The notes under the pieces were generated by a model, which saw only the letters and a list, made by a program, of their open reading frames with translations, did no database searches and was not told where the DNA came from. Shown piece by piece: positions 1 to 9,175 of a stretch of 9,175 nucleotides of DNA (position 1 is the stretch's first letter; each line of letters opens with the position of its first letter). Both the position numbers and the translations under genes were made by a program. Source of the DNA: a virus. Taxonomy: Duplodnaviria > Heunggongvirae > Uroviricota > Caudoviricetes. The DNA lies in the IMG/VR virus record IMGVR_UViG_2531839239_000026, one strand, 5' to 3'.

Positions 1-1236
1 CTATGATAACCGCGCATTCAACATGGCTACCTGTTCGTCGTTCATGTCATCAATCCACATACCGTAAATTTCATACACCATCTGCGCAGTTTCATGCCCC
101 ATTTGGCTGGCTATAAATGCCGGGTTCGCTCCTGCCGTCAACAGCCAGCAGGCAAAAGTATGCCGCGTATGGTACGGATTACGGCGGCGAATACCAGCAC
201 GTTTTACTGCTGCATTCCACCTTGCCCCCAAACTGCTTACCGAGTAATAAGGTTTTTGTTTTCCGTTACACACCCTGGGCATGAAAACAAAATGCAGTTT
301 TTGCTTTTCGGTTCTGCCGTACTCCCGATGATAAAAGGTGATTTCGCTTTTGCGATGATGCCCGGTCAGTTTGTATTGCTCCTTCAGTGCTTCAAGAGCA
401 GGCTGCAGTAGTGTTACCGTCCGGATCCCCGCATTTGTTTTTGGGGGACCGAACATATCCAGTATCGTCAGGTTTCTTCTGACATTCACAACTCCCTTCT
501 CGAAATCCACATCCTCCCACGCCAGAGCAGCCAGTTCCCCGTGACGAAGCCCGGAGTATACGGCAAATTTCCACAAGTTCTGGCTCTGTCCTTTTTCACT
601 TTCCATTAATGCATTGAATTCTGTTTTAGATAACGGGTCAGGCTTTATTCTGTTTCTCTGTAATTTCTTTACTCCTTCAAATGGTTTGGTTGATATAAAT
701 CCCGACTGATACGCAAAACGTAACAACGAACAGAGCAGGGCGATATAGTTATCAACTGTGCGCACGGTTCTTCCTTTTTTGTTGGATCTTGGATTATCCA
801 GGTAAAGCGTTTCTCCATGCAGCAGTTCATTCCGGTAGTTTAAGATATCGCTATAACGAATATGCGATATCGGAGTACTCTCACAAATTATTATCCTGAG
901 TGTTTTTAATTGTGATTTCGTTTTCTTCATTGTGTTTGTTGTTAACTCTGTTTCTTTAATTTTTGTCCAGATATCACAAAGCTCCCCGAACGTTTTTATG
1001 ACCCTCGTTGTCACCATTTTTGCCCCAGTGCTGGACTGGGGAAAACGTCTTAAATACTCAAACTCACCGGAATTGATTTCATGAACTATCAACGCTCTTA
1101 AATTCCCGGCTTTTTTAATGTTACTGTTAGTAACCTCCCAGCCTTTCAATGTTTCCCGACATCGTTTTCCTCGAAACATGAACCAGATGCGAATGTATTT
1201 ACCTCGAATCTCGACACCTGTTGGTAATTTAGACAT
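1..1236 (-). CDS. intR: Tyrosine-family phage integrase (IntR-like), 411 aa
   Basis: Track ORF 1..1236 (-), ATG at 1236..1234, stop TAG at 3..1. C-terminus carries an H-x-x-R motif (HTRHTFA) and a downstream Tyr (VYEIY), typical of tyrosine recombinases. Length matches my recall of Rac IntR. Confidence 0.9.
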   Translation of the reverse strand: MSKLPTGVEIRGKYIRIWFMFRGKRCRETLKGWEVTNSNIKKAGNLRALIVHEINSGEFEYLRRFPQSSTGAKMVTTRVIKTFGELCDIWTKIKETELTTNTMKKTKSQLKTLRIIICESTPISHIRYSDILNYRNELLHGETLYLDNPRSNKKGRTVRTVDNYIALLCSLLRFAYQSGFISTKPFEGVKKLQRNRIKPDPLSKTEFNALMESEKGQSQNLWKFAVYSGLRHGELAALAWEDVDFEKGVVNVRRNLTILDMFGPPKTNAGIRTVTLLQPALEALKEQYKLTGHHRKSEITFYHREYGRTEKQKLHFVFMPRVCNGKQKPYYSVSSLGARWNAAVKRAGIRRRNPYHTRHTFACWLLTAGANPAFIASQMGHETAQMVYEIYGMWIDDMNDEQVAMLNARLS

Positions 1237-1237
1237 A

Positions 1238-1453
1238 TCATGAGTCTTTGATAAACTGATTTATCTTTGGATAGTTATACCAGATAATCCCTCGCTTACT
1301 GTCTGGCTTCCCTAAAGGAGATACTCGTTTGAAGTGGAAGCCTTCCACCCAACAGTTCTGGCGGTATGCTTCAATTTGTCTGGCCCCCAGACCAGTGCGA
1401 AGCATCAGGCCGTATTCAACCATCCACTCTTCATTAAAGATTACTTGTGCCAT
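1238..1453 (-). CDS. xisR: Excisionase-like protein (YdaQ/XisR-like), 71 aa
   Basis: Track ORF 1238..1477 trimmed to the ATG at 1453 ([10 protein letters not shown]...), which is preceded by GAGGTG 7 nt upstream. Stop TGA at 1240..1238 abuts the int ATG, the usual xis-int arrangement. Confidence 0.7.
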
Positions 1454-1552
1454 CGCATCACCTCTGGCAGGCGCCAATGTTAGACTTAAATTGACGCCCG
1501 ATGTTGATTATTAATAATCAGCTATGAAGTTTTAATTTGAATACAATGCAAT

Positions 1553-1741
1553 TCACGAGGACTGAAGTTTCTCGCAATTAAAATTTATCAGTTTTACTTT
1601 CTGCTCTCTGGAAACGCCTGCTTCTTTTTTACCTGAGAGCATTTTTTCGCATTCTGATTTCGTTAGTTTAGATTTTGAATATCTTGTCCAGTTAGTAGGA
1701 GTGCCACCTTCCTTTTCAATAGTGGCGGTAATTTTATACAT
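1553..1741 (-). CDS. ydaC: Small Rac-prophage protein YdaC-like, 62 aa
   Basis: Track ORF 1553..1813 trimmed to the ATG at 1741 (MYKITATIEKEGG...), which has a strong SD (GGAGG, 5-nt spacer). The upstream extension overlaps the ralR frame. Start overlaps the TAA that closes the ralR frame (CATGTATAA). Confidence 0.6.
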   Translation of the reverse strand: MYKITATIEKEGGTPTNWTRYSKSKLTKSECEKMLSGKKEAGVSREQKVKLINFNCEKLQSS

Positions 1742-1928
1742 GAACACCTCCATTATTATTTCCAGTGGTTCGTTTATTTCATCGTTCGAGTGCTTCTTTT
1801 TCACTTCCACCATAACCGGTTCGGGATTCGCATCCGTTACACTTCGCTCGGTAATATCCTGAAATGGCTTTCACCGTTACTGATGGACAACCACAAAATG
1901 GACATGGTTTAACATTGTCATATCTCAT
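1734..1928 (-). pseudogene. ralR: Restriction-alleviation protein / DNase toxin RalR (Lar) frame, interrupted by an in-frame TGA at 1781..1779
   Basis: My own translation of the minus strand from ATG 1928 gives MRYDNVKPCPFCGCPSVTVKAISGYYRAKCNGCESRTGYGGSEKEALER, then TGA, then NKRTTGNNNGGVHV, then TAA at 1736..1734. Reading TGA as Trp gives exactly 64 aa, the RalR length I recall. Cys-x2-Cys ... Cys-x2-Cys zinc-ribbon-like pattern. An in-frame ATG also exists at 1940 (MRKIMRY...). Confidence 0.6.
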
Positions 1929-1983
1929 AATTTTTCTCATAAAAATATTTCAAGTTGGCGGTGCATTACACCGCCAGGCTGAA

Positions 1984-2793
1984 TTATTCCTCTGAATTAT
2001 CGATTACACTGTATTCCCCGGTTAATACAGAGGAATCTGCAGGATCGATTGTCAGTGGTTCCTTTTCATCCATTGATACTGCACGCTGGATCTCAATTGA
2101 TACGGGCAGATATTTGAACAGGCGACGAATAGCCGTTTTCTTTGCCATTTCTTCCCAGTGAGTTACCCACGGCCCGTTATTACCAGCTTTACTCTGGCTG
2201 CGCACCAGCTCAATCTGTTTGCGCGTCATAACTTCAAACTGAGTACCTCCGTCTTTCAGTCTTGCGACAGCATAGACGTGGGTAACAGGGGCATCTTCGT
2301 TTTCTCCTGGGCGGTGTATTAACTTTTCATCAAGGCCAAATTCGAAATTAAACTCGTCACCTTCACGGACAACACGGGCTGACAAGCTGGCGATTTGACC
2401 TGAACGGCGAGCCAGATCAATCATGCCTCGATAGCCAATGATTAGCTGAACGTTTTTTTTACCGCTCTTTTCGTTTTTATTACCAAAAGGCAGTAAATAT
2501 GCATGACCGAGGGCGCTACCGGGCTCAAGTCCGAGCTGTGAACACTGTACGATTGCACTGACAAAACTCATAGTGTCACAGTTTCCTAACGCCGGAACTT
2601 TACGAATTTCTGTGGTGGCGATACGGATCATACGTTCAGCCGTCATATGGCGTGGAAGAGCTGCTGCCAGTTGCTCTTTCATTGATGGCTGGTTAATAAA
2701 ACTAATCACGTCGTTATTTTTAATTGCTGCTGGTGCACGGTTTCCCTGAGTTTTTTGCAGATCGGCTTTTGCGATTGGTGGTTGCTTAGTCAT
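1984..2793 (-). CDS. recT: RecT single-strand annealing protein, 269 aa
   Basis: Track ORF 1984..2850 trimmed to ATG 2793 ([16 protein letters not shown]...), preceded by AAGGA 8 nt upstream. Start overlaps the recE stop by 8 nt. Sequence and length match my recall of RecT. Confidence 0.9.
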
Positions 2794-5386
2794 TTGCATA
2801 TTCCTTAGCCCAGCGGGGCAGTGATAACGTCTTAATAGCTGGCCATTCATCGGTATTGAGGCAGTCAGCCAGGGTTCGCAGATTGCGGTGATATTCCAGC
2901 TGACCTGCCAGTTTTGCTTCTTCGCCCATCATGAAAATTTCAACCGGATAACGTCCGCATTCAATAGTTGTGCTGGCAACCAGAAAAACGAAAGTTGGCT
3001 GCACTCCAAACTGTGCTTCATAACCGTCACTGTAGAATGCATCCTGAACGTGATAGCGGTAGTCGTAATAAGCGGTTTTGAATCGTTGAATATCCGCCGT
3101 AGTTTTCACGTCCATGATCCAGTGAAATTCAGGGATAATTTTGTCCGGACGGCACCGACACAAAATTGCTGTTTCAGGATCTTCCCAGTAAATTGATGAT
3201 TCAGCGTGTCCGGCGCTTTCAACAAGCCATTGCCCCAGCGGCAAAGCCATAACGCTCTGATACATGAGTTCAATTTTCCGGCCTTCTTCGGCAGTGATAA
3301 CCGTTTTTCCTGTGCTTGCGCATTCCCTCAGAAACGCTTTCTCTTCTTCTTTTCCGGAGTTTGTCCGGCGGTTAAATTCAGGTGCTACGATAAAGCGGTT
3401 ACTGAATTCTTCCGGCTCAAGTACCCGGCAGTGGAAAGCGGTTCCTAAATCGAGCGTTTTTGTCTTTGTGGTGTCCACGGGGGCATTTTTACGCCACAAA
3501 TACAGTGCCGGAGTATCAGCAATGTCATCGAGCTGAGACTTACTGACACCGGGACCCGCGTGGTAATTCTCATTCGAAATTCCGTAATAAATACCTGGCT
3601 CTATGTCTTCTACGATTACGGGATCTGCGACTTCGCCAGTTTCATCACTGCAATCGCGATGCGGATCGCTGCCAGCATTCTCATTGTGCGGATGTTCAGC
3701 GCCTTCCATTTCCTCCGGATCATTTTCCTTAGCTTCAACCTGACTCTCTTCATCGAATGTTTCCTGGTATGTTGCGTCGCCCATCACCGCACCACAGTCA
3801 GGGCAGTTATCCCCGCCAGTCTGGCCGCAGGCATTGCAGGCTATTTCCGGTTCCTGTTGCACTACTGGCTCAGGTTGATTCATATCCGGGCTGGTTTTTT
3901 CCGTTTCTGGCTGGTTCTGGTACACACAATCGCGAGTCTGGATCCCCTTTACCCATTTCGGATCGTTCGGGTCGCTAATTCCGTCAACAAATTCACCACG
4001 TGATGCAGCAAGCAATTTATCGGCATCGACAGGATTTTTTGATGGAATGTTTTTCCGGGCTTCATGGAGTTCTGCCCGCAGTTCCTGATATTTCGCATCA
4101 ACAGAATTTACCTGTGACTGAGCATCCAGCGGCTGCGTGTCCTGATGATGTTCAGTTGCGTCCGGTTCCATTGTTTCAGCCTCTCCCTGTTCAACTGCCG
4201 TTGTTCCAGATGGTTGCGGTTTTTCTTCATCATCCTGTTTTCCTTCTTCTGTTACTCGCTGCGGCATCGGGGCAGAGGAGCGACCGCAGGCAATATCCAC
4301 GATTTCCGGATCAGGGTTGGCATGAGCGGTTTCAGTCAGTACTTTGTTCAGATATTCAGTGACGTGCGCGGGGATGACCTCGATCCCAATTGGTGCTTCT
4401 TTTACGGACGCAACCACGATGGCGCGGGAATAATCCAGCCCGCCAGGCATGGTGATGAATTTGTCGCGGAAAACAGAAAAGGGCGGTTTATTTTCAGCGA
4501 TAATTTCCTCAATGCGTTTAGCGTGTGCCGGATGAAGGTTATAGATGTCCAGATCCATTGAACGGGCCAGTACGCCAGTGGCTACGTCGCGCGCCAGTGA
4601 CGTCAGATCGTGTACGAAACCTTCGCCGCGATCGGTGAGGTTTCCGCCGCCAGCATTAGCACCGGAAGCCGTGCGAGTGATGTGTGAAACACGATTACCC
4701 TTCATCCACTCTTTTGTCAGCAGTCCTCGATCGGTGTAGTCAGCGTTCAGGTATGCTTCGAAAAAAGCAGTTATCAGTCCCAGGTTTGAATTACCAGGAT
4801 TAGGGAAAACTTTGTCAGTGTCACGAACCAGTTTGTGGAGTTCGCGAATTTCCAGCGGGTCGAGCAGGCTGGTTTTGTGGGAAACAGCCAGGGCAGTAAC
4901 AGCCGGTAGTTCTTCAGCCCGAGCAATGTGTAATGCCTGGAGTCCGTCGCGTGAAACGTGCGTTACCGGTTTTTCGCTGCCGTGTTGAGCAAGCCAACGA
5001 ATGGGCAGTTCCTGGCCAGAAATTGGGAGTAGCATATTCTCCTCAATCTCAGTCATGTCTTCGCCGTTGACGTTGGTATTGCCTTGATAGTGAGCGTTGT
5101 CTGGTGCTGCTCCCGGTTTTAGTTCCCATGTCATGGAGTCTTTGCTGAGTTGATAGCGTTCACTCCAGGTAAAATCGATCTCACCTTCAGCGGGCAGGTC
5201 ATTAACGACAGGAAAATTCGTGGCAACAGCTTTAAAATAGCTGCTCAGTTTTTTACCTGACTTAACGATCAGGTAGTCCAGAGTGGCACAGGTCGATTCA
5301 AAATCGTTGCTTGCCCACAGGACGACGTCAGGTTCACCGGATGATTTTTTCGCTTTCCGTAACAGGAAGAGTGGTTTTGTGCTCAT
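2786..5386 (-). CDS. recE: RecE exonuclease VIII, 866 aa
   Basis: Track ORF 2786..5386 (-), [14 protein letters not shown]..., full length 866 aa. Has an acidic, low-complexity central region and a C-terminal nuclease region. Overlaps recT. Confidence 0.9.
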
Positions 5387-5457
5387 TGTTTTTTAACCTC
5401 AACTCAGATTAAAATTCGTTTTGTTCAGTGAATGATCTTGCCGGATACACACTGTTC

Positions 5458-5482
5458 ATAGCCTGCGCCATACGCAGGCTAT
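5458..5482. other. Perfect 10-bp-stem hairpin between recE and racC
   Basis: ATAGCCTGCG-CCATA-CGCAGGCTAT: 5458-5467 pairs with 5473-5482, 5-nt loop. Confidence 0.4.
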
Positions 5483-5487
5483 TTCTT

Positions 5488-5763
5488 TCAGATTTCACCT
5501 TTTAATTTCATTGCAATTAGAGTTGCCAGAAATTCGGCTTTTTTTTCTGTGGGCAGATTCTTTCCGATATGCACCAGGCACATTTTTTTGACACCTTCAT
5601 CAAGTGTTTTTACGTTGCCTGATGGACCATCGATATCAACCACAGTGAATGGGGTTTCTTTATTTTCTGTTTTAATTACGTAGCCAATGCGCTTTCCTTC
5701 CAGATTCACCTCGTGAACAATGTCATCGGTAGTTACAACAGTGGCTTCATAATTGGTAATCAT
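5488..5763 (-). CDS. racC: RacC-like protein, 91 aa
   Basis: Track ORF 5488..5811 trimmed to ATG 5763 (MITNYEATVVTTDD...), preceded by AAGGAG with a 6-nt spacer. Confidence 0.75.
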   Translation of the reverse strand: MITNYEATVVTTDDIVHEVNLEGKRIGYVIKTENKETPFTVVDIDGPSGNVKTLDEGVKKMCLVHIGKNLPTEKKAEFLATLIAMKLKGEI

Positions 5764-5837
5764 GTTTTTCTCCTTAATTAAGGTTGAGCGAATACCTGCC
5801 ATTTCTGGCATAAATTCAGTTTCGAATAGTCAATTAA

Positions 5838-6008
5838 TTAAAGTTCATGTGCCATCTGGTCTTTTTCGGCACAAGCTTCACTGCAATATTTTCTCGGTTC
5901 GTCTTTTGATAAAATCCCGTGCATGAAGTGAAGCATTCTTTCAATAGCTTTGCTTTCTTCAACGTCTTTTTTGCAAAGGTGGTAAGCACATTTTATTTTC
6001 TTAGTCAT
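5838..6008 (-). CDS. ydaE: YdaE-like small Cys-rich (metal-binding) protein, 56 aa
   Basis: Not in the ORF track because it is under 60 aa. My translation from ATG 6008: [56 protein letters not shown], stop TAA at 5840..5838. ATG overlaps the kilR TGA (ATGA). Confidence 0.7.
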   Translation of the reverse strand: MTKKIKCAYHLCKKDVEESKAIERMLHFMHGILSKDEPRKYCSEACAEKDQMAHEL

Positions 6009-6229
6009 CACCATGACTCCGCCTTTACAGGTAAACCATCACGACCGAGGAAGACTTTAATCATGCGGTCAGTAATGCATGTTTTTGTGGTCAGGTTACG
6101 AATATATAGTTTTCGCTTTTTAATATTGTTTGCCGAGGCAATATATGTCCGGCCTTCATGAAGAACATAATCGCCAGGAGTCACACACTGACGTGGTATT
6201 TCATCAGTTCCGAAGTGATGTGCAATCAT
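6008..6229 (-). CDS. kilR: KilR-like killing / cell-division inhibitor protein, 73 aa
   Basis: Track ORF 6008..6241 trimmed to ATG 6229 ([14 protein letters not shown]...), preceded by GGAG 8 nt upstream. Confidence 0.8.
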
Positions 6230-6410
6230 AATTATCTCCATTTTTACAAATGAACTTTGTTGATGCGGTGCCTGGTGCCTCCAGGTGACTGCAACCAGTT
6301 AACAATTACAGTCGGCTTTCCCACCCAAACCAATAAGGACTAACATGACTTTTAACTGTGCCACGTGCGCTTAGCCGCATTCACCGCATCACAAAATTCA
6401 CTTTAAAAAG

Positions 6411-6452
6411 GGCGGACATCAGCCGAACTTCAAGAAAAAAACTGATGCCGCC
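6411..6452. other. Long interrupted inverted repeat in the kilR-sieB intergenic region
   Basis: GGCGGACATCAG (6411-6422) and CTGATGCCGCC (6442-6452) form an 11-bp stem with one bulged A around a 19-nt A-rich loop. On the minus strand it is followed by CTTTTTAAA. Confidence 0.3.
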
Positions 6453-6627
6453 AGGACTACACACAGCAATGTCGTTATTTACAACCGGAGGCGCACTCCC
6501 ACCATTTAAATTTAACAGACAAGACCGACTCTTTATGGATATCGGAAATGCGCCTTCGTGTTGTGCCCGGTTTTATTTCACCACCTCCGGGCTTCGGTGG
6601 TCTCGGCTATACCCCTACAGCGAGAGC

Positions 6628-6656
6628 TTGTGTTAACATTTCAATACCCTTACAGT
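6628..6656 (+). promoter_or_regulatory. Candidate sigma70 promoter for sieB
   Basis: TTGTGT (6628-6633), 17-bp spacer, TACAGT (6651-6656), 14 nt upstream of the sieB ATG. Sequence inspection only. Confidence 0.25.
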
Positions 6657-6670
6657 TGAGAGTTATTGAT

Positions 6671-7159
6671 ATGTTGGATGTATTTACTCCATTGTTGAAA
6701 CTTTTTGCTAACGAGCCACTCGAAAGACTTATGTATACGATTATCATTTTTGGTCTCACTCTCTGGCTGATACCGAAAGAGTTTACTGTCGCATTCAATG
6801 CTTATACTGAAATACCTTGGCTCTTTCAGATTATCGTTTTTGCCTTTTCTTTCGTGGTCGCCATTTCCTTCTCAAGATTGCGAGCACATATTCAAAAGCA
6901 TTATTCATTACTACCAGAGCAACGAGTATTGCTTCGTTTATCTGAGAAAGAAATCGCTGTATTTAAAGATTTCCTTAAAACAGGAAATCTTATTATCACT
7001 TCTCCTTGCCGTAACCCGGTTATGAAAAAATTAGAACGGAAGGGCATCATTCAACATCAGAGTGATAGCGCAAACTGTTCTTATTATCTCGTCACCGAAA
7101 AATACTCCCATTTTATGAAGTTATTCTGGAACAGCAGGAGTAGACGTTTTAATCGTTAG
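6671..7159 (+). CDS. sieB: Superinfection exclusion protein SieB-like, 162 aa
   Basis: Track ORF 6548..7159 trimmed to ATG 6671 (MLDVFTPLLKLFANEPLERLMYTIIIFGLTLWLIPKEF...). Two hydrophobic segments suggest a membrane protein. The N-terminal extension in the track is a Pro/Gly-rich intergenic read-in. Confidence 0.8.
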   Translation: MLDVFTPLLKLFANEPLERLMYTIIIFGLTLWLIPKEFTVAFNAYTEIPWLFQIIVFAFSFVVAISFSRLRAHIQKHYSLLPEQRVLLRLSEKEIAVFKDFLKTGNLIITSPCRNPVMKKLERKGIIQHQSDSANCSYYLVTEKYSHFMKLFWNSRSRRFNR

Positions 7160-7311
7160 CTTACTGTGTGCTTCTCCAACCATCGGCGCGCACCAGTTTC
7201 GGTTTTAAATGTTTTGCTTTTGGTATACGTCATGGCAGTGAACGTTCCATCCTGGTTGGGGAACACGCCGCACACCAGGGATTCGTTGTTGCCGAGGTCG
7301 ATTTTTTGCAT
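7156..7311 (-). CDS. ydaF: YdaF-like small protein, 51 aa
   Basis: Not in the ORF track. My translation from ATG 7311: MQKIDLGNNESLVCGVFPNQDGTFTAMTYTKSKTFKTETGARRWLEKHTVS, stop TAA 7158..7156. Its stop overlaps the sieB TAG (7157..7159) on the opposite strand. Confidence 0.65.
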   Translation of the reverse strand: MQKIDLGNNESLVCGVFPNQDGTFTAMTYTKSKTFKTETGARRWLEKHTVS

Positions 7312-7321
7312 TTTGCGAATC

Positions 7322-7456
7322 TCACATCTTGTTGCTACGTATAGCGACTTCTGCCTGCCAGAGATCCCAGTCGTTGCTGCGTAAAGCCTGCACAGCCTGG
7401 TTGTAAGTGATACCGCAACAATCCATCAAATACTGAACTACTTCGTAATGCACCAT
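7322..7456 (-). CDS. ydaG: YdaG-like small protein, 44 aa
   Basis: Not in the ORF track. My translation from ATG 7456: MVHYEVVQYLMDCCGITYNQAVQALRSNDWDLWQAEVAIRSNKM, stop TGA 7324..7322. A GGGGA SD-like element lies upstream. Confidence 0.65.
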   Translation of the reverse strand: MVHYEVVQYLMDCCGITYNQAVQALRSNDWDLWQAEVAIRSNKM

Positions 7457-7632
7457 CTTATCTATCCCCTTAACGCCGGGTGGCGGAACTAACTGCTGCA
7501 CTGCAAAATTTGAATCCCGCCGTCATGTTCATACGCCTCGGGCTGGCTACTTACCCCCTGACCACTGCTTGGTAACTCGAAGTATTGCCCGGCGTTCTGT
7601 GGGGCGGGGTGGGTGGTTGGTGTATGTAATCT

Positions 7633-7672
7633 ACAATAAAAAACTGTTTTTGTGTCAACAGTTTTTAATTGT
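7633..7672. promoter_or_regulatory. OL-like operator dyad with a leftward -35-like TTGACA in its spacer
   Basis: Left arm ACAATAAAAAACTGTT at 7633-7648, right arm AACAGTTTTTAATTGT at 7657-7672 (one mismatch to a perfect inverted repeat). Spacer TTTGTGTC reads TTGACA on the minus strand (7658..7653). The 16-mer left arm is identical to 8668-8683. Confidence 0.45.
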
Positions 7673-7682
7673 TGTTTTGGGC

Positions 7683-7705
7683 AAAAAAATCCCTCGAAAG
7701 AGGGA
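7683..7705 (-). terminator. Candidate intrinsic terminator downstream of parE
   Basis: Minus-strand RNA folds as UCCCUC-UUUC-GAGGGA (6-bp stem, 7690-7695 with 7700-7705) followed by seven U (plus-strand A-run 7683-7689). It starts 18 nt after the parE stop. Confidence 0.4.
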
Positions 7706-7723
7706 GTATGAAAATTGTTCAAC

Positions 7724-8011
7724 TCAGATAGAGAAGGGAAATTGTCGCCGAGAATGTGTCACGCTTACAATCTCAATGCTTGAAGCAGCTACTCTGTACA
7801 GGATTATGTAGTTAGGGTGGGTCACGATCTCTCTCAATCCAGAAACCCGTTCGCTTGGTGGATATAAGTACGGATGCTCAGATAGAGGTAATACCGATGT
7901 TTCAATGCGTATTTTTAGTCTACGTGCTGCCGGTGGGTTCTCCTTGGCGATGTAAGTTATGATCTGGCGCAAATCATCGCGAGCAGACGGTAGCCATAAA
8001 ATGGGTAACAT
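7724..8011 (-). CDS. parE: ParE/RelE-superfamily toxin (ParE-like), 95 aa
   Basis: Track ORF 7724..8011 (-). The C-terminal region ...LREIVTHPNYIILYRVAASSIEIVSVTHSRRQFP resembles the ParE/RelE fold signature. Start ATG overlaps the upstream gene's stop (TAATG), indicating translational coupling in toxin-after-antitoxin order. Confidence 0.75.
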   Translation of the reverse strand: MLPILWLPSARDDLRQIITYIAKENPPAARRLKIRIETSVLPLSEHPYLYPPSERVSGLREIVTHPNYIILYRVAASSIEIVSVTHSRRQFPFSI

Positions 8012-8202
8012 TACTCGCTCTTGTTAGTTACAGCAATTTGAGCAATAAGATTTTCCATTTCAGCCATTACCTCGTCATGTGGAATTGCGGGGCGAGTGTC
8101 TGCAAGGCTTGACGTTACTTTAGTGCGCAACCATTCGTTGTAACTGTTTTCTTGTTCGGTAGTTTCGAATTCTGAAACTATCGGAGAAAGGGCTGTACCC
8201 AT
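8011..8202 (-). CDS. paaA: Small antitoxin, PaaA-like partner of ParE, 63 aa
   Basis: Track ORF 8011..8202 (-), MGTALSPIVSEFETTEQENSYNEWLRTKV..., preceded by a strong SD (GAGGAG, 7-nt spacer). Small and acidic, immediately upstream of and coupled to the ParE-like gene. Resembles the PaaA2 antitoxin of the three-component paaR2-paaA2-parE2 system from my recall. Confidence 0.6.
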   Translation of the reverse strand: MGTALSPIVSEFETTEQENSYNEWLRTKVTSSLADTRPAIPHDEVMAEMENLIAQIAVTNKSE

Positions 8203-8229
8203 GGCATAACTCCTCTTCTTGTACTGTGG

Positions 8230-8631
8230 TCACGCCCGGCGGCTTTTTTGTGCCGCCAGCCACCTAGCAATGGTTTCTTCCATTGATTTTTTCTTGTCTT
8301 TGATTTCTTGAAGCATTTTTTCTTGGTCTTCCTCAGGAAACGCACTAAAAGCTTGGAGCAGTTCGCGTTGGCGAGGACCAATTTTCATCGTGTCAGGGGT
8401 GAAAATTTGCTCACACTCTTCAGGAGGCAATAAAAACCAATGCAATGGATGCCCTGAAACCTCAACCAGTTTATCCAAACTTGAGGCTTTAGGTGTAGCC
8501 TTACCGCTGACCCATTGTTGAACAGTTTGTTGTGTCACACCAATTCTACGGGCAAGCTCAGCCTGGCTCCATCCAGTTTCCTGAAGAAGCTTGCTGATTC
8601 TGTACATAGATACTTCTAGGGCGCTCATCAT
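8230..8631 (-). CDS. cI-like / PaaR-like HTH (XRE-family) repressor, 133 aa
   Basis: Track ORF 8230..8631 (-). HTH region ...SQAELARRIGVTQQTVQQWVSGKATPK... No LexA/S24-type peptidase C-terminal domain is apparent. Divergent from the Cro-like gene across the dyad-containing intergenic region. No SD precedes the ATG. Confidence 0.75.
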   Translation of the reverse strand: MMSALEVSMYRISKLLQETGWSQAELARRIGVTQQTVQQWVSGKATPKASSLDKLVEVSGHPLHWFLLPPEECEQIFTPDTMKIGPRQRELLQAFSAFPEEDQEKMLQEIKDKKKSMEETIARWLAAQKSRRA

Positions 8632-8667
8632 TATTCAATTTTACAGGTAAATACTGTTAAAAGCATC

Positions 8668-8706
8668 ACAATAAAAAACTGTTGATTGCATACAGTTTTT
8701 TATTGT
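8668..8706. promoter_or_regulatory. OR-like operator dyad between the divergent repressor and cro-like genes
   Basis: Perfect 15-bp inverted repeat: ACAATAAAAAACTGT at 8668-8682 and ACAGTTTTTTATTGT at 8692-8706, separated by TGATTGCAT. The spacer carries rightward -35-like TTGATT/TTGCAT hexamers. The left arm is the same 16-mer as 7633-7648. Confidence 0.5.
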
Positions 8707-8739
8707 AGGCTTTGCTTATAGTTTTTAGAGGAGGGCAAA

Positions 8740-9012
8740 ATGCTAGATAGCACTCGCGAAAAAATTAGGCAGAAATACACTCAGGCTGAAATAGGTCGTT
8801 ATATGGGGGTCGCTCAACAGACTGTTTGGCAATGGTTTAGCTTTGGCGTTCCCCCAAAGCAGGTAATTCCGTTATGCCAACTAATGAAGTGGGAAGTTAC
8901 CCCGCATGAAATCCGCCCAGATATTTATCCTAACCCAACCGACGGTTTACCTGTTGGATGTAAGGTTAACACATCAAATGCGCCGGAGTTGATTCATGAA
9001 AATCAAGCATGA
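8740..9012 (+). CDS. ydaS: Cro-like HTH regulator (YdaS family), 90 aa
   Basis: Track ORF 8740..9012 (+), MLDSTREKIRQKYTQAEIGRYMGVAQQTVWQWF... HTH-like region, GGAGG SD with a 4-nt spacer. Sits in the cro position, divergent from the repressor. Confidence 0.7.
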   Translation: MLDSTREKIRQKYTQAEIGRYMGVAQQTVWQWFSFGVPPKQVIPLCQLMKWEVTPHEIRPDIYPNPTDGLPVGCKVNTSNAPELIHENQA

Positions 9013-9175
9013 ACACATCCGCATGGCGATGAATGCCTGGGCGCATCCGGACGGCGAAAAAGTACCGGCTGCGAAAATTACCAAAGCGTATTTCGAGCTG
9101 GGAATGACGTTCCCGGAACTGTATGACGACAGCCATCCGGAAGCCATGGCTCGCAATACTCAGAAAATTTTCCGT
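8996..9175 (+). CDS. ydaT: YdaT-like protein, N-terminal 60 codons (runs off the window end)
   Basis: ATG at 8996 preceded by GGAG with a 7-nt spacer. Translation MKIKHEHIRMAMNAWAHPDGEKVPAAKITKAYFELGMTFPELYDDSHPEAMARNTQKIFR stays open to the window end. Overlaps the ydaS 3' end by 17 nt. Confidence 0.65.
   Translation, partial: MKIKHEHIRMAMNAWAHPDGEKVPAAKITKAYFELGMTFPELYDDSHPEAMARNTQKIFR

Follow-up and report, generated by a model that had tools for sequence, protein, structure and literature searches.

Genes and sites of the immunity region

At its right-hand end the window, that is, the whole stretch of 9,175 nt that was analysed, carries a repressor gene followed by a PaaA/ParE module on the minus strand and an overlapping ydaS-ydaT gene pair on the plus strand, with operator-like repeats between and beside them. 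Gene content, operators, YdaT-box, mosaic structure and homologies were all established on the window itself, and the genes and sites needed below are listed from left to right.

7511-7530, no strand: crossover interval between a Rac-type left arm and an Sp4/CP-933M-type immunity region (four-way alignment, blastn blocks)
7628-7672, minus strand: OL/PL-like region (repeats, pattern scan, promoter scan)
7633-7647: OL-like operator ACAATAAAAAACTGT
7658-7672: OL-like operator ACAGTTTTTAATTGT
7658-7653 (-35, TTGACA) and 7633-7628 (-10, TAGATT), minus strand: leftward PL candidate, 19-nt spacer (10/12 in the promoter scan)
7690-7705, minus strand: terminator-like stem-loop with T run just downstream of parE (consensus match only)
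7724-8011, minus strand: parE toxin gene, 95 aa, ParE2 paralogue (PF05016, E = 2.9e-17)
8011-8202, minus strand: paaA antitoxin gene, 63 aa, PaaA2 paralogue (PF21217 PaaA2, E = 5.6e-19)
8230-8631, minus strand: immunity repressor gene, PaaR-type CI analogue, 133 aa (HTH_3, E = 2.3e-12)
8638-8643, minus strand: candidate PRM -10, TAAAAT, 6 nt ahead of the repressor start codon, ATG at 8631 (read from the sequence)
8643-8706, no strand: OR-like cluster of three 15-bp sites (repeat analysis and pattern scan)
8643-8657: OR-like operator ACAGGTAAATACTGT
8668-8682: OR-like operator ACAATAAAAAACTGT
8692-8706: OR-like operator ACAGTTTTTTATTGT
8682-8687 (-35, TTGATT) and 8706-8711 (-10, TAGGCT), plus strand: candidate PR, 18-nt spacer (read from the sequence)
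8729-8734: AGGAGG, the Shine-Dalgarno sequence of ydaS itself
8740-9012, plus strand: ydaS-like gene, Cro analogue, 90 aa (ORF; PF15943)
8985-8988, plus strand: GGAG, Shine-Dalgarno sequence of ydaT, 7 nt upstream of its ATG
8989-9006, no strand: YdaT-box TTGATT-N6-AATCAA, TTGATTCATGAAAATCAA, an exact match with the ydaT ATG in its spacer
8996-9175, plus strand: 5' part of ydaT, CII analogue, first 60 codons, ATG at 8996, cut by the end of the window

The preliminary description had drawn much of this outline, and its annotation is borne out: a 90-aa Cro-like ydaS overlaps the start of ydaT by 17 nt, ydaT has a GGAG of its own, and the pair lies directly downstream of an OR-like operator (three sites) and adjoins a ParE module (PF05016, PF21217) and a 133-aa HTH repressor that is not RacR. 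The overlapping gene pair is thus confirmed as real.

The repressor has an N-terminal HTH, whose recognition helix is GVTQQTVQQW, and its C-terminal region is conserved in PaaR2; overall the two proteins are 37% identical, and the C-terminal ~50 residues are strongly conserved. Its best PDB match is the HTH of the 434 repressor, its match to the DicA subfamily model falls below the cut-off, its homologues include the CI proteins of Gifsy-1/2 and SPN3UB, and its phage homologues are annotated as CI. No Peptidase_S24 match to the 133-aa protein was found in the Pfam search. It is in this respect unlike the lambda repressor and like PaaR2, DicA and the Gifsy repressors; since a LexA-like S24 autocleavage domain is lacking, induction, if any, needs another route.

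Downstream of the repressor gene, in the same orientation, the PaaA/ParE module is intact. The repressor stop codon is separated from the paaA start by 27 nt, and the paaA stop and parE start overlap by 1 nt. PaaA matches PaaA2 (PDB 3zbe, E = 1.4e-20; 62% identical to PaaA2) and ParE matches ParE2 (PDB 5cw7_B, E = 3e-36; 67% identical to ParE2 of Sakai Sp12). The composition is that of the PaaR-PaaA-ParE systems, with a ParE-fold toxin after an antitoxin of the PaaA2 family that lacks a DNA-binding domain, and a PaaR2-related HTH gene upstream. The stem-loop at 7690-7705 probably marks the end of the repressor-paaA-parE operon.

The OR-like sites have the form ACA-N9-TGT over 15 bp, their centres are 25 and 24 bp apart, and the last of them ends 34 nt upstream of the ydaS ATG. 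The three OR-like and two OL-like sites share one 15-mer, and ACAATAAAAAACTGT itself recurs at the OL-like site 1035 bp from its OR-like copy; two operators, not more, are visible at the OL-like site. The candidate PR scores 7/12 and is absent from the promoter scan output. Its spacer holds the operator at 8692-8706, and its layout parallels that of the PL candidate and of TTGACT-18-TAAACT in prophage CP-933P. Both the PR and the PRM candidates match the sigma-70 consensus poorly. The candidate PRM -10 lies so close to the repressor ATG (six nt) that the mRNA is predicted to be leaderless; the PRM geometry of CP-933P is alike (GATAAT-6 nt-ATG), and its PaaR2 mRNA has been shown to be leaderless (PMC8630535).

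YdaS, encoded between the divergent repressor gene and ydaT, matches Pfam PF15943 with 38.8 bits (E = 8e-10), above the gathering cut-off of 30 bits; no NCBIfam model matched YdaS or YdaT. Phage homologues of YdaS are annotated as Cro. Because a sequence search of the PDB gave insignificant matches only (the best meaningful one being Xfaso 1 Cro, E = 0.15), a structure model was made. The AF2 model has a mean pLDDT of 77, four main helices (residues 3-48), a short helix at 55-58 and a C-terminal tail (77-90) with pLDDT below 50 that is predicted to be disordered. The top Foldseek match is again Xfaso 1 Cro (3bd1, probability 1.0, target-normalised TM 0.66), followed by the CI and Cro proteins of lambda, P22 and N15; owing to the small size of the domain the E-values are weak, none being better than 0.08. 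The model thus points to an HTH fold of the phage Cro/CI type.

The recognition helix of YdaS, GVAQQTVWQW, has a QQTV-x-QW motif in common with that of the repressor, and the two HTHs are identical at 15 of 28 positions (E = 4e-8). In a sister variant of the locus (L019) the recognition helices and the operators are both changed, the latter having ACAC/ACTC half-sites. The near-identical helices, and the joint change of helix and operator in L019, suggest that YdaS and the repressor would bind the same operators. With their QQ-containing recognition helices and ACA...TGT operators, the window proteins and sites are reminiscent of phage 434.

The ydaT frame, MKIKHEHIRMAMNAW..., is open from the ATG to the end of the window, and the 60-aa fragment taken from the window alone had no Pfam match. 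A locus that is 100% identical over 7600-9175 (L001) holds the full-length gene, whose 141-aa product is annotated as a YdaT family protein and matches PDB 8bt1 and 3c4r with E about 1e-83; relatives of this protein carry PF06254, and the C-terminal part lies beyond the window. In the scan that located the YdaT-box, 0.09 matches with at most one mismatch were expected by chance, and the box is kept in all six loci compared. A purine-rich Shine-Dalgarno sequence is found at the same position before ydaT in the five other loci, despite unrelated upstream sequence.

Comparison with lambda, CP-933P and Rac

From the gene content and the arrangement of sites, 7628-9175 is very probably the immunity region of a PaaR-type lambdoid prophage, with ydaS as the cro analogue and ydaT as the cII analogue. 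Lambda-like features are the divergent repressor and cro genes, the three evenly spaced operators, the second operator set at PL, the accessory genes co-transcribed with the repressor, and, after cro, a gene for a CII-type activator that has its site where cro and cII meet. Sequence homology with Cro or CII of lambda is absent, and the YdaT site is an inverted repeat, not direct TTGC repeats.

The closest characterised relative is CP-933P (Sp12), which shares with the window the architecture, the gene order, the YdaT-box and an OR together with a distant OL/PL, and whose YdaT is 86% identical to that of the window, the closest found. In CP-933P the roles of CI, Cro and CII are played by PaaR2, YdaS and YdaT, there are analogues of OR, PL and PRE, and control of the PL/OL analogue by PaaR2 and YdaS has been demonstrated experimentally (PMC8630535). 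YdaT is a POU-like HTH tetramer that binds TTGATT-N6-AATCAA at the ydaS/ydaT junction, and the box in the window is the same as the OM operator that footprinting located in CP-933P (PMC9986795). In Rac, where the box differs at 1 nt and also has the ATG in its spacer, it activates a reverse promoter and raises racR expression (PMC11879457). Activation of a PRE-like promoter by YdaT has thus been shown for both CP-933P and Rac (PMC8630535, PMC11879457).

For DNA binding, promoter activities and PRE activation in the window we infer from this published work on CP-933P and Rac, and the switch would then operate as follows. The repressor and the YdaS-like Cro analogue would compete for the three A-tract-centred 15-bp operators between the divergent genes, and the same two proteins would also compete at the two operators of the PL-like promoter 1 kb leftward. 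The repressor, probably made from a leaderless mRNA, as its geometry and the CP-933P case suggest, would be co-transcribed with paaA-parE, an addiction module in the place of lambda rexAB. Rightward transcription from PR would give a bicistronic ydaS-ydaT mRNA. The YdaT tetramer would bind the inverted repeat TTGATT-N6-AATCAA across its own start codon and activate a leftward PRE-like promoter, leading to more repressor synthesis; consensus scans of the minus strand at 8740-9175 gave no candidate for this promoter.

YdaS of CP-933P is 23% identical to that of the window, and no BLASTP match was found between these two proteins. The HTH of PaaR2 also differs from that of the repressor, and the operators are ACAAT-N5-ACTGT in the window versus repeats of the GTTTAGTAA type in CP-933P. 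Because YdaS, repressor HTH and operators all differ, the two immunity regions are probably heteroimmune.

The racR-ydaS-ydaT genes of K-12 Rac occupy the same position in a Rac-type prophage, and their YdaS belongs to the same Pfam family. The K-12 YdaT has the start MKIKHEHI in common with the window YdaT, and its YdaT-box, ATGATTCATGAAAATCAA, spans the ATG and is 1 nt off the box of the window. Identities to the window proteins are low: 33% over 51 aa for YdaS (31% semi-global), 32% by BLASTP for YdaT (34% semi-global) and about 25% for RacR and the repressor. In contrast to the window, K-12 Rac has no ParE module, and its ydaS ends 22 nt before ydaT.

What the ydaS-ydaT pair encodes is not a second toxin system but the two regulators, Cro-like and CII-like, of a well-known lambdoid prophage switch. 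A ParE module in a lambdoid immunity region beside ydaS-ydaT, the Cro and CII roles and the YdaT operator are already published. Since the pair belongs to a well-known switch and is identical in E. coli O157:H7, the finding is an ordinary one. An exact copy of the YdaS protein occurs in 12,558 indexed blocks of the collection, with the same neighbours in all eight places shown, so that the arrangement is no product of chance. The exact sequence is common in O157:H7 and other E. coli and carries little weight as a discovery.

The overlap between ydaS and ydaT

The overlap comprises the 17 nt at 8996-9012 and falls on the YdaT-box. Six loci share identical sequence starting at (T/A)TGATTCATGAAAATCAAGCATGA and have unrelated sequence upstream of it, and at least six different Cro-position genes, with mutual identities of at most 40% or none detectable, join the near-identical ydaT 5' end. 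The overlap measures 17 nt in the window and in E2348/69 (which has another repressor and no ParE) and 4 nt in 40EC, L004 and Sp12, and it is replaced by a 22-nt gap in K-12. In the window the shared segment, which starts just ahead of the YdaT-box (8985 onward), supplies the last eight ydaS codons (ELIHENQA).

The sequence conserved between prophages starts at about 8985, directly upstream of the YdaT-box, and Cro-position genes entering it stop at one of two TGA codons, giving an overlap of either 4 nt (ATGA) or 17 nt (...LIHENQA*). Because the shared sequence starts just upstream of the YdaT-box, the length of the overlap is set by the reading frame, and the 17 nt have no special function. 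The YdaS tail that is encoded in the overlap is predicted to be disordered. What is gained is a simple account of the overlap, in which the frame determines its length from the shared sequence just before the YdaT-box.

It is improbable that the overlap serves to couple the translation of ydaT to that of ydaS and so to fix a Cro:CII ratio. The ydaS stop does lie only 14 nt past the ydaT ATG, but ydaT has its own Shine-Dalgarno sequence at optimal spacing in every locus, and the identical ydaT 5' end occurs in relatives with a 4-nt overlap or a 22-nt gap. The 17-nt overlap recurs across this YdaS subfamily (L005, L017, L019), a recurrence to be expected, as the shared sequence has its stop codon at a fixed place. 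The idea that the overlap reflects a TA-like design or obligatory coupling was rejected because its length varies among loci whose ydaT 5' ends are the same.

Toxicity and origin of the ydaS-ydaT pair

The preliminary description had also proposed two independent mechanisms that penalise loss of the repressor or of the element, and here its two halves part ways. Addiction through ParE has support from its paralogue: paaR2-paaA2-parE2 was shown to stabilise plasmids by post-segregational killing (PMC8630535). The toxicity of ydaS-ydaT, on the other hand, had been argued from K-12 Rac, where the toxicity of YdaT is a transcription-factor effect through rcsA (PMC11879457). YdaT of CP-933P was found to be non-toxic (PMC8630535), and it differs from Rac YdaT in that it fails to activate the rcsA promoter of the host (PMC11879457). 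Since this protein is 86% identical to the window YdaT, the K-12 argument transfers poorly to the window pair, and caution is advised in that neither the names "toxin YdaS/YdaT" nor the K-12 toxicity data are transferable to the Sp4/CP-933P lineage.

That the pair is nonetheless a repressor-addiction device, whose derepression on repressor loss would inhibit growth independently of ParE, seems to us quite unlikely. Such a role would agree with observations in K-12, where racR is essential, silencing of racR induces ydaS-ydaT and growth arrest (PMC5700377, PMC5700373), and overexpression of Rac YdaT kills cells (PMC11879457), but the window proteins are about 31-34% identical to those of K-12, and the closer YdaT of CP-933P is, as described above, non-toxic and inactive on the rcsA promoter that mediates the Rac YdaT effects. 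Growth defects did follow prolonged overexpression of CP-933P YdaS and PaaR2 (PMC8630535), this YdaS being, however, only 23% identical to that of the window, and, when SOS is not induced, the majority of cells in CP-933P reporter strains grow with ydaST switched on (PMC8630535). A growth cost on derepression is conceivable by analogy, since the K-12 YdaS and YdaT are toxic when overexpressed (PMC5700377, PMC11879457). Should loss of the repressor carry a penalty, the toxicity could equally well, or better, be ascribed to the intact kilR gene, which lies downstream of the PL-like promoter.

A bona fide type II toxin-antitoxin pair is hardly credible: database names ("YdaS_toxin" in Pfam, "toxin YdaT family" in RefSeq) and a tight operon of overlapping genes would speak for it, but YdaT is a tetramer with a defined operator (PMC9986795), the Jurenas and Wons papers both decide against a TA system, and the same ydaT 5' end is found with six Cro-position genes, one of them encoding a P22_Cro protein beside an S24-peptidase CI. 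The cluster representative closest to PDB 8bt1 (P0093) sits beside such a P22_Cro/S24-CI pair. The two genes thus lack the joint inheritance and evolution of a cognate type II pair, and the joining of ydaT to at least six Cro-position genes favours YdaT as a CII-type regulator over YdaT as half of a co-evolved toxin pair.

Over positions 7600-9175 the window agrees at every nucleotide (100% identity) with an E. coli O157:H7 prophage, Sp4/CP-933M (Sp4 in Sakai, and also in EDL933), which has the same genes with products of the same lengths (ParE 95 aa, PaaA 63 aa, repressor 133 aa, YdaS 90 aa, YdaT 141 aa). CP-933M carries a homologue of paaR2-paaA2-parE2 (PMC8630535), which, as cited in PMC8630535 and PMC4803016, is the paaR1-paaA1-parE1 of Hallez et al. 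2010. The left arm of Sp4 differs: it has an exonuclease, dicB and DUF1482 genes and lies beside yccA, whereas the left arm of the window is that of Rac, with intR, xis, rcbA, ralR, recT, recE, racC, ydaE, kilR and sieB. In the four-way alignment the window follows Rac (40EC, K-12) up to about 7510, where Sp4 is very different, and from 7519 it is identical to Sp4, the Rac copies differing at scattered positions. The crossover thus lies inside a segment of ~105 bp (7511-7616) that is common to both prophage types.

The pair is native to the Sp4/CP-933M immunity region and arrived together with the repressor and ParE. The earlier suggestion that the same pair had been retained from Rac is contradicted both by this crossover map and by the identities of ~31-34% to the K-12 proteins, and it was rejected.

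None of 5,426 complete E. coli genomes covers at least 80% of window positions 7200-7900, that is, the Rac/Sp4 junction is absent from them, and the best whole-window match covers 85%. A two-anchor pattern likewise found no such junction in GTDB representative genomes or JGI metagenomes.

As a tentative idea, which we consider possible though unlikely, the ParE-carrying immunity region could be a selfish exchangeable block that moves as a unit between unrelated lambdoid prophages. Such a block may be bounded by short conserved linkers, on one side the ~105-bp segment to the left of OL and on the other the YdaT-box together with the 5' end of ydaT. If this were true, the addiction module would bias recombination, in that recombinants gaining the region survive and those losing it die, and the window would be a natural product of the process, an Sp4-type PaaR/PaaA/ParE/YdaS region in a Rac-type prophage of which the left crossover alone is visible. 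The Rac/Sp4 hybrid junction is in any case a small example of an immunity-region exchange that carried a TA module along.

Layout and distribution of the immunity region

The ydaS-ydaT region is a lambdoid immunity module that is already known, is widespread and has been characterised in part; the preliminary description had observed the pair correctly. The ydaS gene (8740-9012, +; 90 codons) has its own ribosome site (AGGAGG, 8729-8734), and its 90-aa product was assigned to the YdaS family with 38.8 bits against Pfam PF15943 (cut-off 30). The ydaT ATG lies at 8996 in another frame, with 17 nt common to both genes (8996-9012), and is preceded by its own GGAG (8985-8988; ATG 7 nt further on). 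From this ATG the frame, MKIKHEHIRMAMNAW..., is open up to the window end (60 codons). As also described, a non-Rac repressor and a ParE module adjoin the pair, in the form of three minus-strand genes upstream of ydaS. The OR-like operator, also directly upstream of ydaS, consists of three 15-bp ACA-N9-TGT sites.

Genes (Pfam search) and operator sites (pattern and repeat scan) next to ydaS
7633-7647 and 7658-7672: left (OL-like) sites, 1 kb leftward
7724-8011, minus strand: ParE toxin
8011-8202, minus strand: antitoxin, PaaA2 family
8230-8631, minus strand: helix-turn-helix (HTH) repressor, 133 aa
8643-8657: OR-like site, ACA-N9-TGT, 15 bp
8668-8682: OR-like site, ACA-N9-TGT, 15 bp
8692-8706: OR-like site, ACA-N9-TGT, 15 bp

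The OR-like sites are spaced 25 and 24 bp from centre to centre, and the 15-mer ACAATAAAAAACTGT occurs exactly three times, once inverted. A PL candidate (TTGACA-19-TAGATT) overlaps the left operator pair, the two together spanning 7628-7672, with a terminator-like hairpin between it and parE. A putative PR with the same layout, weak by consensus, is found on the right side (TTGATT-18-TAGGCT). The PRM candidate, TAAAAT on the minus strand, is followed 6 nt on by the repressor ATG, the same geometry as in CP-933P (GATAAT-6 nt-ATG), for which a leaderless PaaR2 was demonstrated (PMC8630535).

The immunity region, counted as present at ≥80% of window 7600-9175, was found in 506 of 5,426 complete E. 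coli genomes, and a ydaT-type gene in 3,054 of them, in up to 7 copies each. In the genome collection, 12,558 blocks are indexed as containing exactly this YdaS protein; in all eight contexts shown it lies between YdaT and a pair formed by PaaA and the PaaR-type repressor, and a ParE gene was called in seven. A ParE module accompanies the related YdaS of locus L019, and related YdaS proteins also occur in Rac-type prophages that lack it (L017). For this immunity type the TA module is thus an optional passenger.

Origin of the region and specificity of its regulators

Many E. coli O157:H7 genomes have a prophage that agrees with window 7600-9175 at 100% identity; in Sakai the match falls within a feature annotated as 'prophage Sp4', and it is present in EDL933 too. 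A homologue of the three-component paaR2-paaA2-parE2 system has been described on CP-933M (Jurenas et al., PMC8630535). Identity to the K-12 Rac proteins is 33% for YdaS (over 51 aa) and 32% for YdaT, and the repressors are barely related. The Sp4 identity together with these low values makes the region Sp4/CP-933M-type, not Rac, and the view that the same pair had been retained from Rac had to be abandoned. Compared with the characterised CP-933P paralogue, taken from Sakai Sp12, YdaT is 86%, ParE 67% and PaaA 62% identical, the repressor 37% with conservation confined to the C-terminal ~50 residues, and YdaS 23% with no BLASTP hit. When the window repressor (8230-8631) is aligned with PaaR2 (L015 3860-4231), the N-terminal DNA-binding half differs throughout and the C-terminal ~50 residues are near-identical (ELLQ.FSAFPE...SME..IARW.AAQK.RRA), a pattern that would fit a common oligomerisation module with swappable DNA-binding domains.

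The window is a mosaic of Rac and Sp4-type prophage. It follows Rac prophages over 1-7625 (98.8% to 40EC; 99.7% to K-12 over 5500-7617) and the Sp4-type locus over 7465-9174. In a four-way alignment the crossover falls at ~7511-7530, within a ~105-bp segment common to both prophage types; only this left crossover is visible in the window, the right-hand one, if any, being past its end. The shared segment (7511-7616), just left of the OL-like operators and with only scattered mismatches between Rac-type and Sp4-type, would make the 5' part of the PL transcript. The junction of Rac arm and Sp4 immunity (window 7200-7900) was spanned by none of the 5,426 complete E. coli genomes, and pattern scans across one genome per GTDB species and across JGI metagenome contigs gave no match.

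The HTH motifs of the repressor and YdaS have 15 of 28 residues in common (E = 4e-8; GVTQQTVQQW and GVAQQTVWQW), a likeness that would be expected for a CI/Cro pair competing for one operator set. In the sister variant L019 both helices differ, as do the operators, with ACAC/ACTC half-sites. The closest solved relative of the repressor is the 434 repressor HTH, its phage homologues are CI proteins of Gifsy-1/2 and SPN3UB, and a Pfam search of the 133-aa protein gave no S24 peptidase domain. Phage homologues of YdaS are annotated Cro. The AlphaFold model of YdaS (25 homologues; mean pLDDT 77) predicts an HTH bundle in which four main helices (3-48) are joined by another, short helix (55-58), and a tail (77-90) that is disordered. 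Among its fold matches the Cro of Xfaso 1, a Xylella prophage, ranks first, and repressor/Cro domains of lambda, P22 and N15 come next, with E-values that are weak, the domain being so small.

Among 25 YdaS relatives (8740-9012, alignment A1), the recognition-helix region varies between immunity types, the C-terminal stretch EVTPHELRPDIYPNPTDGLP is nearly invariant, and most proteins terminate in IHENQA, a tail read from the YdaT-box. L019 (GCA_053454755.1, 1488-3182) is another PaaR-PaaA-ParE / YdaS / YdaT variant, with a YdaS 61% identical to that of the window, a ParE of 96 aa, and operators unlike those of the window (ACTCAAAAAATGAGT, ACACAAAAAACGAGT and ACACGTTTTTTGTGT). It is apparently a separate immunity specificity of unchanged design.

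The YdaT-box and the gene overlap

Positions 8989-9006, TTGATTCATGAAAATCAA, are an exact TTGATT-N6-AATCAA; if up to one mismatch is allowed, 0.09 matches would be expected by chance. The same motif was footprinted in CP-933P as the high-affinity operator of YdaT (PMC9986795). One base separates the box from its Rac counterpart, the 'YdaT-box', which has the ydaT ATG in its spacer and raises racR expression by activating a reverse promoter (PMC11879457).

When six junctions were lined up (window, E2348/69, 40EC Rac, L004, K-12 Rac and Sp12), identity started at (T/A)TGATTCATGAAAATCAAGCATGA and continued downstream, and the upstream sequence was unrelated; despite this, a purine-rich SD is kept at all six. 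Identity among the six Cro-position proteins does not exceed about 40%, several pairs having none detectable, and one of the proteins belongs to the P22_Cro family and adjoins an S24-type CI. The stop position of the Cro-position genes is set only by the frame within the shared sequence.

Ends of the Cro-position genes
40EC, L004, Sp12: ending ...DS*, 4-nt ATGA overlap with ydaT
window, E2348/69, L017, L019: ending ...LIHENQA*, 17-nt overlap with ydaT
K-12 Rac: stop 22 nt upstream of ydaT

Because frame alone sets these stops, and the YdaS tail encoded by the overlap is disordered in the AlphaFold prediction, the overlap is a by-product of a recombination joint situated at a regulatory site.

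The YdaT encoded in L004 (GCA_012703725.1, 3023-4426) shares 99% identity with the CP-933P protein that was crystallised. Its neighbours are a Cro of the P22_Cro family and a CI of 238 aa that includes an S24 peptidase domain, so SOS-inducible immunity regions, too, are served by YdaT-type CII analogues.

Cost of repressor loss

It had been proposed that derepression of ydaS-ydaT is growth-inhibitory, and that ydaST and ParE are two independent mechanisms penalising loss of the repressor or the element. The first proposal holds for K-12 Rac: growth stops when racR silencing releases ydaS-ydaT from repression (PMC5700377, PMC5700373), and cells that overexpress YdaT die, partly via rcsA activation (PMC11879457). 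CP-933P behaves otherwise. Its YdaT, 86% identical to that of the window, showed no toxicity; growth was slowed only by prolonged overexpression of YdaS or PaaR2, and in reporter strains most cells grew with ydaST switched on in the absence of SOS induction (PMC8630535). The rcsA promoter is not acted on by CP-933P YdaT (PMC11879457), and both groups judged that ydaS-ydaT is not a TA system (PMC8630535, PMC11879457). A second toxin mechanism in ydaS-ydaT is at best weakly supported in this lineage. The ParE half of the proposal would, by analogy, stand on firmer ground, since the paralogous paaR2-paaA2-parE2 stabilised a mini-F plasmid with or without ydaST (PMC8630535).

The PL/OL-like site (7628-7672) has an intact kilR downstream of it (6008-6241, -; NF008465, 161 bits), which encodes an FtsZ inhibitor. 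Derepression of kilR should also follow repressor loss, making it another candidate source of cost if such loss is harmful, and probably a stronger one than ydaS-ydaT.

The type I toxin gene ralR (1734-1928, -) carries a nonsense change, W50*, at 1779 (T in the window, C in 40EC Rac), which shortens RalR from 64 to 49 aa, and the antitoxin sRNA RalA (1557-1735, +; Rfam RF02694, 225 bits) is intact. One toxin module of the prophage therefore seems to be decaying.
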